Shown here: in pieces, positions 18,996-55,784 of the stretch
How the letters are laid out: each line of letters opens with the position of its first letter
How positions within the stretch are numbered: the first letter of the stretch is position 1
Source of the DNA: an uncultured Thermoplasmata archaeon
GTDB taxonomy: Archaea; Thermoplasmatota; Thermoplasmata; RBG-16-68-12
DNA: 64,000 nt
Direction: 5' to 3'
Assembly (NCBI GenBank): GCA_963768855.1
Contig: CAVYJM010000006.1
Coordinates: 32,001-96,000 of the forward strand
Notes under the pieces: generated by a model
The model's database searches: none
Seen by the model: only the letters and a program-made list of their open reading frames with translations
Told to the model about the DNA's origin: nothing
Made by a program: the position numbers and the translations under genes

Positions 18996-19160
18996 CCCCC
19001 CTCGCTCTGTCTCTCCCCGCGCAAGCACGCCTTGGCGTGCCTGCAACTCAACGTGTCCGCATCCGCAAGCGGTTGCCGAGAGGGTACGTGCCCTATCCGC
19101 AAGGTAGAGCGTAATTCTGGGGTTCCTTCTCCCCTTGCGGGAGAAGGACAGGATGAGGGG
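18996..19160. repeat. REP-like palindromic element, family A, degenerate, with nested hairpin cassette
   Basis: ccccctcgctctgtctctcccc...ggagaaggacaggatgagggg. Confidence 0.8.
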
Positions 19161-19202
19161 TAGGCCCCATACGATGCCTACTAAGACGCCCTATAGCCGC
19201 AA

Positions 19203-19339
19203 TATAGTTAATATTTGCATGGTAAACGCGCGCGCGGCATAATTTCCGCCGCCGTAAAGATCGTGATTTTTTCCATTTTTACCCCCAAATCTGCAATTCA
19301 GAAAATCCGGTTAAACATAGATTATTGCGCGCGTTAACT
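19203..19339 (-). repeat. ~137-bp AT-rich intergenic element, copy 3 (most diverged)
   Basis: Reverse complement shares ordered blocks with copies 1 and 2: GTTAA, TATGTTTAACCGGATT, AATTGCAGATTT, CGGCGGCGGAAATTATG, GTTTACCATGC, ATTAAC. Confidence 0.75.
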
Positions 19340-19560
19340 ATAATGCGCCATCTACGATTGCAACGTAAGCCATTGCAACTCTTGCCGTTGCTTGGCTTTG
19401 TCAGACTTTATCTCGCTCAATCAGCAACTTAGCGCAATTAAAGCTTCCGCAAGGCGCATTCGCTTATAATGCACCATGAAACAAGCCGCTTCATCCGGCG
19501 CTAAACTAATTAGATATATCCAGTAAATGCGGTTAATCGGTGCTTAAAGCGCGATGGCTC

Positions 19561-22452
19561 TCAAGCGACCAACTCGGCGAAAAGGCGCGCGGTGCTGGCG
19601 TAGGTGTCCCGCAGCCGCGCCTCCAGCCGGCTGGCATCCGGCTCGCCGGTTATTTGCAGCAGAAGGCGGGTCAAATCCTTGGGCGCGGTCTTGGGGTCGA
19701 ACCCGCCCTCGGTGCAGAGCCGCAGGATTTGCGCCACGTCCTGATAAAGCTCCACCGCGCGCAACAGCGTGTTGCCGTCGGCCCGGCTCAGAATGCCGGC
19801 GTGGATCAGGTTCCGCAGCGCCTGCGCCGTGTTCGGGCTCAAGACCGCCGGTTCGTCCGCCGCGTGCACAATCAGGAGGAACTGCGTGATGAATTCCGCG
19901 TCGATGAGCCCGCCCTTATGCGTTTTCGTCCGCCAGATGTCGGCCGTGCCCTTCTCCGGCCTCGATCCGGACCCGCATTTCGCGCACGTCGGTGGCGGTT
20001 TTGTCCCGGTCGCGCCGCATGGTGAGCACCTGATGGATATCCTCAGCCAGCCGCGCCCGCAGCGCCGCCGGTCCCGCGATCGCCCGCGCCCGGGTCAGCG
20101 CCAGATGCTCCCACGTCCAGGCTTCCTTCAGCTGATAGGCGAGGAAGCCGTCGAGGCGCACGGCCACCGGCCCGGCCTTGCCGGAGGGCCTGAGCCGCAT
20201 ATCGACCGGATAAAGCAGGCCCTCCGGCGTTGGCGCCGAGATCGCCGCGATCAGCCGCTGCGTCATCCGTGCATAATGATGCGAGGCCTGCGGCGCTGCA
20301 TCGGGCGGCGTGTCGTAGACCACGATCAAATCCAGATCGGAGGAGGCGGCCATTTCGCGCCCGCCGAGCTTGCCCATGCCGATCACCGCCGGCGCGGGAA
20401 AGCCGCCGCCATATTGCGCTTGCACCGCGTCGAGCAGGCTTTCGATCACCGCCTCCGCGACCAGCGAATAATCCTCGCCTGCCTCGGCTGGCGCGAGCTG
20501 CCGCGACAGCAGCCGCACGCCGATGGCGAAGGCTTGCTCCTGGCCCGTGATGCGCGCGCGGTCCAGCCGCTCCTCGTAGGACGCTGGCCTCGAAAATCTC
20601 ACGCCGGATCAGCGCCTTGAGATCCTCCTCGGAGGGCCTTTCGCCGATATAGCCTGGGTCGAGAATCGCGTCCATCAGGCGCCGGCGGCGGCCCAGGATG
20701 TGGGCGAGCCGGGGCGCGGACCCCATGATTTGAGCGATGAGCCGCAAAAGATGCGGATTGGCCCGCAGCATGGAAAACAGCTGCAAGGCGCTGGGCGCCT
20801 CTTTCAAGAAGGCGTCGAAGGTTCCCAACGCCAGGTCCGGGTCGCTGGTATCGCCGAGCGCTTCCAGGAGCGCGGGCGTGAACTCGGTGAGGATCTCCCG
20901 CGCGCGCTCGCTTCGCATCGCTTTGTAGCGGCCGTAATGCCAGCCTTTCACGGTGGCGATGGCCGTGGACGGGCTCTTGAAGCCGAGCTTCTCCAGCGTA
21001 TCCACGGTTCCCGGATCGTCGGCATCGCCGGTGAAGGCGAGATTGCCCGCGACGCGCTGGGGCGTCAGCTCGGGCGTGCTCTCGAACAGCGCGGCGTAAT
21101 GCGCCTCCACGTTCTGCATATGCCAGCGCAGTTCGCTCTTGAAGCGGTCCAGGCTCGCATAGCCGGCAAAGCGGGCGAATTTGGCCAGCTCCTCTTCGCT
21201 CGCGGGAAGCGTATGCGTCTGCTGGTCCGCCATCATTTGCAGACGGTGCTCCAAGCGCCGCAAATAGCGGTAGGCGGCCGAAAGATCGTCGCGGACGGGC
21301 GCGCCGATCCAGTCGAATTTCGCAAGCAGCGTCAGCCCGGTAAGCGTCTCCCGCGCGCGCAGCGCGGGCTGCCGGCCTCCAGCGATAAGCTGCTGGGATT
21401 GCACGAAAAACTCAATCTCGCGGATGCCGCCCCGCCCTAGCTTCAGATTATGCCCGGCAATCGCGATCCGCTGATGCCCCTTGGCGGCATGGATCTGGCG
21501 CTTCATCGCGTGAATGTCGGAGATGGCGTTAAAGTCGAGGTATTTCCGCCAGATATAGGGCTCAAGCGCCTTGAGAAACGCATTCCCTGCCGCGATGTCG
21601 CCGGCCACCGGGCGCGCCTTGACAAGCGCCGCGCGCTCCCAATTCTGGCCCAGGCTTTCGTAATAGCGGAAGGCGGCTTCGGTCGAGATCGCTGCCTGCG
21701 TCGAGCCTGGATCGGGGCGCAGCCGCAGATCGGTGCGGAAGACATAGCCGTCAGCCGTGCGCTCCTGCAGGATGTGGACGAGATCGCGGGTGAGTTGAAC
21801 GAAAAACGTGGCGGGTTCGGTACCTGGGCCAAGCGGCGCGCAGTCGCGGCAGTAAAAGACGATCAGGTCGATGTCGCTCGAATAATTGAGTTCATGCGCG
21901 CCGTATTTGCCCATGCCGAGGATGACAAGGCCGCTGCCTTTCTCGGGATTTGCGGGATCGCGAGGCACATATTTCCCCGCACGCGCGGCCCGGCGCAGCA
22001 GAAAGCGGATGGCAGCGCCCACGAACAGATCGGCGGCTTCGCTCAGCCTGCGCGTGACCTCGTCCACGGTCCAAATGCCGGCCAGGTCGGCGAATGCGAT
22101 CAGAAAGGCGATTTCCGTCTTGCCTTGCCTCAAGATGCGCATGATATCGCGCTGCGCCTCCGCCGCCGCGGCTTCGCGGCTGGTGCGCGACAGGATTTCG
22201 TCGAAATGGGTTTCCGGGGCCGTGTAGAGCGTTGAGGTGAGGAGCAGCGGAGACTTTTCCGCCAAGCCCGCGAGGTAGGAAGAGCCCGCGAAGACGCCGC
22301 CCAGAAAAGCTGGCAATGCGGTCCGGGAATGCTGGCAGCGGCGGCTTCAGGGCAGCGCAAACCCGTTCGAGCCAGCGGCGGCCGTTGCCGGATTCATCGG
22401 CGGCGGGCCCTTCGATCAGGCGTCCGGAAAAGGGACCCGAGCTAATCGGCAT
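19561..22452 (-). CDS. glnE: Bifunctional glutamine synthetase adenylyltransferase, at least three apparent frameshifts (~22320, ~20580, ~19957)
   Basis: GMGKYGAHELNYSSDIDL, FRTDLRLRPDP, NWERAALVKAR, KLGRGGIREIEF, GMGKLGGREMAASSDLDL, VDMRLRPSG, WTWEHLALTRAR. Confidence 0.95.
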
Positions 22453-27921: not shown

Positions 27922-28635
27922 TCAGGCGACGCGCCAAAGCTTCGCGGCGTGGAGCATGAAGAGCTTGGGCTCCGATTTGTGCAGCGAGCGGATGGCTTTG
28001 GAACGGCATGAGAGCCCGCCGGCATAGGCGCCGAAGGCTGGCATGATGAGCAGATCCTCCGAAACGCAGAAGCAAGGGCCGGAAAAGCGGTAGCCGCCTG
28101 CCGGCACGCTGGCCTTCGGATGGAGATGGCCCACAATCTGCGGGGTTGCGCGGGCGGCGGCCGGTTCGTGGCGCAGGATCGCGCCGCCAATCTCAATTTC
28201 GGTGCGGGTTTCGCCGCCGCAAAACGCAGGCGTTTCCGGATCGTGATTGCCGCCAAGCCATATCCATTCGTCAACGGATGCGCAAAGCGAGGATAGCTCG
28301 TCCTTATCCGCGGCCGCCATGCGCTCGCCCGCGAAGCAGTCGTCGAAGCTGTCGCCAAGGCAGATAACGCGCTCCGGCCGGTAGGCTTCGAGGACGCGTT
28401 TCAGCCGGTGGAGCGTATCGCGGCTGTCGAGCGCCGGCAGGAGGCGGCCCTTGGACGCGGCGCGCGATCCCTTTTCGAGATGGAGATCCGCAATGATGAG
28501 CGTGTCCCGCGCGCGCATATAGGCGGCGCCGGATGCGTCGAGCGTAAGGGCCAGCCCCGCGAACTCGATCTGAATTGCAGGCTTGCCGGTACCCGGCACC
28601 TGCCCCGGCAGCGCGTCTGTTCCTTGCGATCTCAT
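27922..28635 (-). CDS. pdeM: Ligase-associated DNA damage response metallophosphoesterase
   Basis: ADLHLEKGS, LGDSFD, GNHD, RHEP, GHLHP, MPAFGAYAGGL. Confidence 0.85.
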   Translation of the reverse strand: MRSQGTDALPGQVPGTGKPAIQIEFAGLALTLDASGAAYMRARDTLIIADLHLEKGSRAASKGRLLPALDSRDTLHRLKRVLEAYRPERVICLGDSFDDCFAGERMAAADKDELSSLCASVDEWIWLGGNHDPETPAFCGGETRTEIEIGGAILRHEPAAARATPQIVGHLHPKASVPAGGYRFSGPCFCVSEDLLIMPAFGAYAGGLSCRSKAIRSLHKSEPKLFMLHAAKLWRVA

Positions 28636-28664
28636 GCCAAATCCGCTTGATTGCTTCACGAAGT

Positions 28665-28773
28665 CCCCCCTCATCCTGTCCTTCTCCCCGAGGGGAGAAG
28701 GAACCCTCGAACTGTCCGCAGAGGATGTTCTAGGGTCCTCTCTCCCCTTGGGGAGAGAGACAGAGTGAGGGGG
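28665..28773. repeat. REP-like palindromic element, family A
   Basis: ccccctcatcctgtccttctcccc...ggggagagagacagagtgaggggg; between ispE and pdeM. Confidence 0.88.
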
Positions 28774-28844
28774 TCTTTCGCCGAAGCCATGAAGCAATCA
28801 ACCGGTTTTGTCATCGCTCCTTTTCGCGTCTCTTCAAAGGCACA

Positions 28845-34207: not shown

Positions 34208-34513
34208 TAAGAGTGCCGGAATTTGCAGCGCCGGTCGAGAGCTTCCGCACGGCCTGCTTAAGCGCGCCTGACCGGGCGCCGCGGTCGCATCGGCCCGGCG
34301 AAACCGGGGCTGGGCCGGCTTTTCCTGCCGGGAGGGCGGGAAAGCTCTTGTTAACGTACTTTGCTAGCATTTTGCCGCGTTCCGCGCCGCTTTTCGATAT
34401 TGAACTAATTTAGCAGATGCGCTTTGAGAAAACGTTAAGAGCGCAGTTCTGGCGCAAGTGTTTGATTTAAAGCGGCAAAATTTGCGAACGAAACGCCCCT
34501 AAACTGGACTTTC

Positions 34514-34650
34514 GGTTAATTCAGAAGTTGCGCGTATATTTAAACGGATTCTGAAATCGTAGAATTCGACCAGAAACACGAAAAGATTCGCAAAAACACG
34601 GCGGCGGAAAATATGAGTAACCGCGGTTAACCACGCCCGCATTAATCATG
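34514..34650 (+). repeat. ~137-bp AT-rich intergenic element, copy 1
   Basis: Manual alignment to the reverse complement of 55054-55189 gives 109/137 identities, including exact 19-bp (tatatttaaacggattctg) and 17-bp (gaaaagattcgcaaaaa) blocks. Confidence 0.9.
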
Positions 34651-34692
34651 CTGCGCCCGTAGGGAAGCTTCATTATTTGTTAATGCTTTTAA

Positions 34693-34977
34693 TTAGTCGC
34701 CAGAACTGTCCTCAAACTCTTCGTCAACGATCTCGCCGATGCCGAGGCTCCAGCCTTCGTATCCGGGCAGTGCGCGCGCTTCGGCCAAGGGGGACGGCGA
34801 AGGGATAGGGAGGCCCGCATCCAGAGCCGCATCGATCCACGCCGCCGCCGCTTCCTTCGCGGCCTCCATGGCTTCGTCCAGGGTATCGCCAGCCGAGAAG
34901 CAGCCCGGCAGATCGGGCACGGTGACGCCGAACGCCGCGTGCTCCGAGCCTTCTTCGATCAGGACGGGGTAACGCAT
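34693..34977 (-). CDS. hicB: HicB family antitoxin, orphan and lacking a C-terminal DNA-binding domain
   Basis: MRYPVLIE...FGVTVPDLPGCFSAGDTLDEAMEAAKEA...GLPIPSPS; no hicA adjacent. Confidence 0.85.
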   Translation of the reverse strand: MRYPVLIEEGSEHAAFGVTVPDLPGCFSAGDTLDEAMEAAKEAAAAWIDAALDAGLPIPSPSPLAEARALPGYEGWSLGIGEIVDEEFEDSSGD

Positions 34978-35005
34978 CATAGACCTGCCTGTTTGCGGAT
35001 CGCCG

Positions 35006-54615: not shown

Positions 54616-55053
54616 AGTCAAGAAATAAGTTAAATCGAATTTTACTAAAATAGCACGCGCGGCGGTATTCCTTAGTAAATATTTGTCAGCAGTGAAACAG
54701 GGCGTACTATATAATACGCGTTATATTGGTGTTAGTGGCTGGATTCTAAGCTTCGGTGCGGCTGCTGAACCTTCCGTTTCTTTTGTGGCTCGCTTGGATT
54801 TATTGGCTCCCGCCAGCGATACATGCGCACGATACCGAGGCCTCATGCAAGCGAACGCGCCATTGTCGCCGAAAAGGCATTTGACCTTATCTGTATGGTT
54901 AAATATCACGGAGGGGTTTGTGGCTACAACCAATCGCGGGTTGTGTTGTATTAGATGGTGCCACTTATGGGCGTAGGGACTGTTCGACCCCTCCGGGCCT
55001 GCGCAAACGCTTGGGCGCCTGACCGGGGTCTGGAAATGGACTGCTCCGGCTAT

Positions 55054-55189
55054 CATGGTTAATGCGAGCATGGTAAACGCCGGGCGGGCATATTTTCGCC
55101 GCCGCATTTTTGCGAATCTTTTCTCGTTTTTGGCCAAATTCTGCGATTCCAGAATCCGTTTAAATATATTTGCAACGGCGAAATTAACC
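55054..55189 (-). repeat. ~137-bp AT-rich intergenic element, copy 2
   Basis: Reverse complement is ~80% identical to 34514-34650 with one gap. Confidence 0.9.
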
Positions 55190-55309
55190 CTGAAACGGTG
55201 CATTCCGCGCCGCTCGCGCCCGGCGTCAAGCGCAACTTTCTGGCGCATAGTTAATGCCAAGGAGGTTTGGGGGGCGCTAAATGACAGAGGGGGCGGCGAG
55301 ATTAGCACG

Positions 55310-55411
55310 CCCCCTCACCCCAGCCCTCTCCCGCGAGGGGAGAGGGGGCGGGCTGCGGCGCTTGCGAAGGCGTCCCCTCTCCCCTCGCGGGAGAGGGACA
55401 GGGTGAGGGGG
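55310..55411. repeat. REP-like palindromic element, family A
   Basis: ccccctcaccccagccctctccc...gggagagggacagggtgaggggg. Confidence 0.9.
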
Positions 55412-55598: not shown

Positions 55599-55784
55599 AT
55601 GGCAGTCCCCAAGAGAAAAACGTCGCCCATGAAGCGCGGTTTCCGCCGTTCCGCCGACGCACTCGCCGCGCCCACCTATGTCGAGGACAAGGAGTCGGGA
55701 GAGCTGCGCCGTCCGCATCACATCGACCTCAAGTCCGGCAAGTACGGCGGGCGTCAAGTGCTGAAGCCCAAAGAGGAAATCTAG
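55599..55784 (+). CDS. rpmF: 50S ribosomal protein L32 (no zinc-binding cysteines)
   Basis: [22 protein letters not shown]....[28 protein letters not shown]. Confidence 0.97.

Follow-up and report, generated by a model that had tools for sequence, protein, structure and literature searches.

Repeats dispersed through bacterial genomes are commonly regarded as selfish DNA. BIMEs, and the RIMEs of rhizobia, are intergenic and consist of conserved boxes with variable spacers; they are GC-rich, palindromic and hairpin-forming, BIMEs bind IHF, and REP elements are tied to RAYT transposases. The Correia repeat enclosed elements (CREE) of Neisseria are 100-150 bp in length, carry 26-bp terminal inverted repeats with a TA duplication, and include recent copies (PMC2649163), and putative mobile promoters are defined by high similarity upstream of genes (PMC3575422). 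Among single promoters, the P2 promoter of Caulobacter ctrA carries an activating CtrA full motif at -39 (PMC4287350), and under the published definitions of CtrA sites TTAACCAT represents a half-site (PMC3692519). The repeat family described here shares features with each of these systems and departs from each. Half of its positions are near-invariant in dozens of old copies, and the literature that we searched holds no account of it.

The window analysed here is a stretch of 64,000 nucleotides that carries three copies of the repeat. The unit of ~137 bp named in the original prediction is the conserved core of a larger, ~350-bp non-coding cassette, of which at least 74 copies are present in a Rhodomicrobium-related soil bacterium, uncultured Alphaproteobacteria bacterium MFD06085.bin.1.7 (a MAG of 6.3 Mb in five contigs, referred to here as G041). 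In that prediction copy 1 (34514-34650) agreed with the reverse complement of copy 2 at 109 of 137 positions, a figure that BLAST returns as 79.6% over 137 nt, and a third copy was proposed. Indeed, all three are recovered by an nhmmer profile built only from the copies of other genomes, from which all copies in the window and the orthologue of copy 3 in G041 were excluded: the core of copy 1 at 34508-34685 (+, E=6.9e-49), that of copy 2 at 55047-55202 (-, E=1.6e-46) and that of copy 3 at 19185-19343 (-, E=1.3e-16). The window holds no fourth copy, the next nhmmer match reaching only E=2.4. The doubt that copy 3 might owe its similarity to AT-richness is removed by its score of 55.1 bits, as the best of 500 shuffles of the copy 3 region, at 4.3 bits, falls far below it. 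Copy 3 instead represents a second subtype, of the form TTTAACCGGATTTT...GAAAAAATC, which is common, and indeed dominant, in the related genome G045.

The window itself proved to be misplaced. It corresponds to positions 32001-96000 of contig C6 (1.13 Mb) of the assembly (G000), and the first ~145.5 kb of this contig has a GC content of 0.61 vs 0.67 for the rest, together with a tetranucleotide correlation of 0.79 with every other part of the assembly, all of which correlate with one another at 0.99 or more. Twelve kb of the window are collinear with G041 contig C4 at 96-100% identity, and the same range of identity is seen over the whole of C6:1-145,500, which is collinear with ~790-935 kb of that contig. 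The foreign composition of the C6 head, together with this collinear identity, assigns the window to the G041 species, and judging from these comparisons C6 is probably a chimeric join of two organisms with the junction at ~145.5 kb. The assembly holds five full copies and one partial copy by nhmmer, all on C6 between 20.8 and 123.8 kb, and BLAST gave no meaningful match in 24 same-genus and 16 same-order genomes of the assembly. The element is missing from all 24 same-genus genomes because the C6 head is foreign to the MAG and these are therefore the wrong relatives; as the window lies in what is probably a chimeric MAG contig, any comparison with the relatives of the assembly misleads. The expectation of a genome-wide family thus holds for G041, where exact cores occur on all five contigs, and fails for this assembly, where the copies are confined to the foreign 145-kb segment.

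The core pattern has 74 exact matches in G041, 43 forward and 31 reverse, intermixed on the five contigs, whereas the reversed control pattern has none. A chromosome-organisation site was one of three functions originally suggested; one of the parS type is not supported by this arrangement, as the G041 copies lie on both strands and on all contigs with no polarity. A degenerate-pattern scan of species-representative genomes gave ~65 loci from G041 and further loci in three Rhodomicrobium sp. MAGs, one Hyphomicrobiales MAG and two further MFD alphaproteobacterial MAGs, and overall the family is present in 12 of 61 relatives of G041, the Rhodomicrobium MAGs included. A first look with BLAST had returned 207-213 candidates in G041, the higher number reflecting that the two halves of the element also occur apart. 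Other repeats share the window. A GC-rich palindromic REP-like repeat of the CCCTCTCCCC..GGGAGAGGG type lies at ~55290-55400, downstream of copy 2, and also near 19100-19160, with dozens of copies at 85-92% identity among the matches listed in G044, G045, G062, G063 and G075, and a further dispersed repeat of ~165 bp at ~28633-28805 is found on four G041 contigs, in at least five copies that are 88-90% identical.

When ~85 copies are aligned with long flanks, conservation spans ~350 bp (about 600-700 bp in one subfamily) and resolves into a core, a variable spacer, an IHF-type box and a promoter-like module, in this order on the strand opposite to that of the original prediction. GTTAAC words stand at the ends of the composite and the inverted words GGTTAAT / ATTAACC at the ends of the core, such that the reported lack of terminal inverted repeats is borne out for long repeats and not for short ones. 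The core is ~170 bp in length, AT-rich (49% GC vs 62% for the host segment) and without a long palindrome, in keeping with its proposed separation from the GC-rich REP families. It is bounded by inverted TTAACCAT-like words; words of the ATGGTTAA type, the reverse complement of TTAACCAT, mark its bounds and two more lie inside. The core also contains two to three GANTC sites of the CcrM-type methylation motif (mean 2.5), four T-tracts within ~40 bp and invariant blocks such as AATCCGTTTAAATATA. Its A/T-tracts are set at roughly helical spacing, yet irregularly, at 15, 12 and 8 bp in the G041 copies, and a Fourier test for 10.5-bp phasing is uninformative because all copies share one layout.

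Downstream of the core, an exact match to the IHF consensus WATCAA-N4-TTR occupies a fixed relative place in 21 of 67 copies vs 0.3% of shuffles. The promoter-like module that follows consists of TTAA-N7-NNAA, 11 nt ending in TGC, and TAnnnT, and this full architecture is seen in 40 of 67 copies vs 0.15% of shuffles, the spacing from box to -10 being 11 nt in 39 of the 40. The module was also recounted with TTAA-N7-NNAA as the only anchor, without forcing the -10. The box then falls in the expected zone in 58 of 71 copies, offsets 9-11 after it read T (0.63), G (0.80) and C (0.81), and the hexamer from offset 12 to offset 17 reads T (0.85), A (0.81), A/T, A (0.73), A/T and T (0.83). The high conservation of hexamer positions 1, 2 and 6, together with the TG extension, is the ground for reading this hexamer as a sigma-70 -10. 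If transcription begins 7 nt after the hexamer, the box would have its 5' T at about -38, the start site itself being predicted from the motif. In its second half the box is degenerate (TCAA in 14, GTAA in 10, TTAA in 5, GCAA in 5 and TAAA in 4), and the module is missing in ~18-40% of copies, copy 2 of the window among them. Integron attC sites, sigma-54 promoters and DnaA boxes were also considered as explanations of the motifs and were excluded by spacing and sequence inspection.

These words are concentrated in the elements. Within the 145-kb segment TTAAC occurs at 11.6 per kb inside the elements vs 0.49 per kb outside, a 24-fold enrichment, such that the elements make up 1.4% of the segment yet hold 24 of its 94 TTAAC words and two of its three TTAA-N7-TTAA matches, and GANTC occurs at 4.8 per kb inside vs 1.27 per kb outside. 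Of the three functions originally put forward, a multi-site protein-binding module is the best fit to this enrichment, to the clusters of GANTC, to the IHF consensus and to the putative CtrA-type promoter box. The machinery that reads GANTC is present in the carriers, as GcrA genes were found in all five carrier genomes tested. Most Alphaproteobacteria have one GcrA. The G041 genome has seven full-length GcrA-family matches (C1:50254, 106417 and 555571; C3:638788 and 931299; C4:1305027 and 1783316), two of them with an in-frame TGA, and one partial match, and the extra matches may represent paralogues from prophages or mobile elements.

Each part of this architecture can be followed in the window. 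Copy 1 is a complete composite cassette on the minus strand, conserved in the family alignment from GTTAAC (34350-34355) to ~34690, and over 361 bp it matches G041:C4:861051-861411 at 96% identity. Its AT-rich core, the right module of the composite, contains the boundary words GGTTAAT (34514-34520), TTAACCAC (34627-34634) and ATTAATCAT (34641-34649), and, along with A-tracts, GANTC sites at 34547-34551 and 34585-34589. The IHF-consensus box AATCAAACACTTG, which fits WATCAA-N4-TTR, lies at 34455-34467 on the minus strand and is followed at 34438-34407 by the promoter-like module, in which TTAA (34438-34435), N7 and TCAA (34427-34424) precede 11 nt that include TGC (34415-34413) and the -10 hexamer TAAATT (34412-34407). 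Transcription is predicted to start near 34400 and to head to lower coordinates. A gene for a HicB-like antitoxin (Pfam E=1e-27) at 34693-34980 on the minus strand directly adjoins copy 1. The core of copy 2 reads on the plus strand ~400 bp upstream of rpmF (55599-55784), the product of which, L32, is recognised by Pfam, and carries TTAACCAT at 55055-55062, TTTACCAT at 55070-55077 and GGTTAAT at 55183-55189; the DNA downstream of it shows no recognisable promoter-like module. Copy 3 is a complete cassette of the second subtype, also on the plus strand, the module of which spans 19438-19470 with TTAA (19438-19441), N7, GCAA (19449-19452), 12 nt and a perfect TATAAT (19465-19470). This module points at the 3' end of glnE (20043-22316, minus strand), with GlnE identified by Pfam.

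All 87 copies examined are intergenic, and their flanks are unrelated, as the original prediction had it for the window copies, with blastn finding no flank homology other than an unrelated GC-rich repeat. Every one of the four possible combinations of flanking-gene orientation is represented (22, 21, 17 and 15 copies), and the promoter-bearing copies face a gene start in 20 cases and a gene end in 22, counts that rest on codon-model gene calls spot-checked by Pfam. As there is no orientation bias, the cassette is not tied to the expression of a particular neighbour. Two inverted pairs of cassettes with their promoters facing inward lie 2-4 kb apart in G041 (L040:4620-7128 and L063:2323-6977), with genes for an extensin-like protein and a GST within one pair and rpsF ... 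DUF2147 within the other; a transposase was sought between the paired copies, and only ordinary genes (extensin-like protein, GST, S6, acetyl-CoA hydrolase and DUF2147) were present. The cassette stands upstream of two ribosomal-protein genes, rpsF in the paired copies and rpmF. Outside the window, cbpA-like (DnaJ + DnaJ_C) and cbpM-like (MerR_2) genes at L002:32-1182 (G000 C6:122145-123295) converge on a copy. In one subfamily a conserved gene was considered after an AGGAGG word, where a 220-aa frame runs antisense to cbpA-cbpM; the similarity stops after ~125 nt, and the frame is a GC-rich artefact and not a gene.

The conservation of the cassette does not stem from recent copying, since among 72 copies the median identity to the nearest paralogue is 0.82 and the highest is 0.89. 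Within the same 72 copies the conserved columns are 93% identical on average, whereas the variable columns, at 37.5%, are near saturation, a mosaic which implies purifying selection on roughly half of the positions of each copy. Judging from these columns, selection acts on the DNA sequence; the distance to the nearest paralogue shows that the copies are old. In the window, G063, G045 and G062 alike, a copy occupies an equivalent position upstream of rpmF, with flanking genes ~83-86% identical, and the copies at this locus have kept the spacing of their T-tracts despite sequence drift. At the DUF2237 locus, on the other hand, the element is present in the window and the G041 species and absent within 1.1 kb in G062, G063 and G045. 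The persistence of the one and the presence or absence of the other indicate that the family spread by some copy-and-paste process, long ago. At the DUF2237 locus an island from the HicB-like gene to ~36800 is, along with the cassette, missing in the three related species.

We propose that the repeat forms the core of a protein-bound promoter cassette, dispersed, non-coding and of ancient origin, that acts through its DNA; to this reading we assign a probability of about one half. The core would provide bent upstream DNA with TTAACCAT-like CtrA half-sites at its bounds. CtrA, or a like regulator, and IHF would assemble on this bent upstream core, and the assembled complex would then switch on the outward-facing sigma-70-type promoter. 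The promoter, in turn, would fire a short, poorly conserved transcript that runs into the neighbouring DNA. The identity of the bound proteins, the activity of the promoter and the benefit to the cell are inferences from the sequence. Against the model stand the absence of any bias towards gene 5' ends, the few terminator-like sites downstream, the degenerate second half-site, the copies that lack the promoter module and the irregular spacing of the A/T-tracts, and words of the TTAAC type may also belong to other regulators.

Other explanations place the function of the cassette in its products. As the promoter-like module precedes a ~75-nt stretch, often with a GC-rich stem, that ends in GTTAACAGGAGG, the cassette might be a family of structured small RNA genes, the remaining function suggested originally. 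Rfam, however, returns no match at the gathering threshold, nor one for the composite at E<=10, mutual information within the core carries subfamily signal only with no Watson-Crick covariation, and RNAalifold predicts 0 pairs in the transcribed stretch. Furthermore, a hand-proposed stem pairs in 59% of cells vs 57% in shuffles, a terminator-like site lies downstream of the promoter in only 4 of 42 copies, and the TCTG/CAGA hairpin of the original prediction is not preserved across the family, which leaves structured RNA a highly improbable account. Alternatively, the core might encode, on the strand opposite to that originally described, a family of small proteins 45-75 aa in length (MVNA..YF..FCESF..GRI.RFQNPFKY..INH.TVH). 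Of 95 copies drawn from six genomes, ~80% keep this frame open, a point that the earlier dismissal of a conserved ORF overlooked; synonymous changes are 1.85-fold overrepresented among single-base differences from the consensus, 19 of 37 variable codons vary most at the third position, and the G062 orthologue shows several synonymous changes relative to the consensus. Other frames are just as open, however (82% for the second sense frame and 64-73% for two antisense frames), probably because the strand is T-rich and A-poor. In addition, pN/pS is 0.65 vs 0.6-1.1 in control frames, a permutation test of period 3 gives p=0.06-0.09 before correction, and of 43 degenerate third positions 14 never vary and carry A or T, in a genome that is GC-rich. 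The start codon is missing in ~14% of copies, some copies have 1-nt indels or stops, and the frame is broken in three of the four rpmF-locus orthologues. Protein-level searches and models added little: 5.8 billion proteins yielded two matches, both hypothetical, Pfam gave no match and the Atlas search no usable match, the Atlas language-model recognition score is 1226 where 91% of known-family proteins reach 2300, and the AF2 model from a 48-row alignment has a pLDDT of 57 and a pTM of 0.16. The coding signal, the period-3 variability included, is thus weak and the frame is not supported as coding, and we hold a small protein to be very unlikely.

The remaining explanations operate, as does ours, on the DNA itself. 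The cassette could be an architectural or titration site, a docking place for a MucR- or H-NS-like silencer, for IHF, or for CtrA as a sink, with the promoter-like part incidental or itself only a binding site. Such a site would accord with the AT-rich core, its several A/T-tracts and many TTAAC words, with constraint at the nucleotide level, with copies spread without bias over all four gene-orientation contexts, and with the failure to find terminators or RNA structure. We nonetheless hold it to be unlikely, as the promoter-specific conservation of TAnnnT and a TG extension held at constant spacing relative to the box are hard to reconcile with a pure binding site, and the copies show no strand polarity along contigs. 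A decayed, selfish, MITE-like non-autonomous repeat without host function, the conserved blocks of which would be relics of the needs of transposition, would explain the dozens of copies at unrelated intergenic loci, the subfamily structure, the presence or absence at the DUF2237 locus between species and the short inverted words at the core ends. A dead element would decay evenly, however, and here half of the columns are 93% identical although no paralogue exceeds 89%. No real terminal repeats beyond the 7-9-bp words, no target duplications and no partner transposase were found, and one copy has stayed in place across four species, so that a purely selfish repeat seems to us rather unlikely.

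That half of the positions are near-invariant while their neighbours have been randomised argues that each copy does something at the DNA level, and the words that were kept are those of the alphaproteobacterial cell-cycle machinery, namely CtrA boxes, sites of GANTC methylation and a site for IHF. Should CtrA drive the promoter, this lineage would have brought many intergenic sites under the control of its cell cycle. One may go further and suppose that Rhodomicrobium-like budding bacteria keep by selection some 75-200 bent cassettes, scattered through the chromosome and bound by CtrA and IHF, that fire short non-coding transcripts once per cell cycle and either buffer or absorb the master regulator genome-wide or mark, in a timed manner, the boundaries between chromosome domains; this is a speculation that we hold to be unlikely, and if true it would represent a repeat family domesticated into a cell-cycle circuit. 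The family provides a ready-made set of sites for ChIP, transcription start site mapping and reporter assays.

Returning to the described systems, the cassette is like BIMEs and RIMEs in its intergenic position and its modular conserved boxes with variable spacers, and unlike them in being AT-rich, not palindromic and without an associated transposase. With putative mobile promoters it shares homologous promoter-bearing DNA beside unrelated genes, both within a genome and across related genera (PMC3575422), although it is old and mosaic, faces gene ends in half of its copies and has a large conserved upstream core. As in the full-motif CtrA promoters of Caulobacter (PMC4287350), a TTAA-N7-TTAA-like box with its 5' base near -38/-39 is held at a fixed distance from a sigma-70 -10, with GANTC sites and more TTAA half-sites nearby; known CtrA promoters, however, are single-copy and stand before specific genes, whereas the cassette has been copied dozens of times with no preference for gene orientation, its second half-site is degenerate and CtrA binding is here putative. 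In our best reading, the closest known kind is that of the Correia-type regulatory repeats. The cassette departs from CREE in its ~350-bp modular build, in having only 7-9-bp inverted words with no detectable duplication, in having no copy above 89% identity and in its CtrA-type boxes. Both nonetheless are short, non-coding, multi-copy intergenic repeats (PMC2649163) in which an IHF site is combined with promoter sequences, and both may be present in one genome and absent from a related one; by this analogy the cassette may, as CREE can, influence neighbouring genes.
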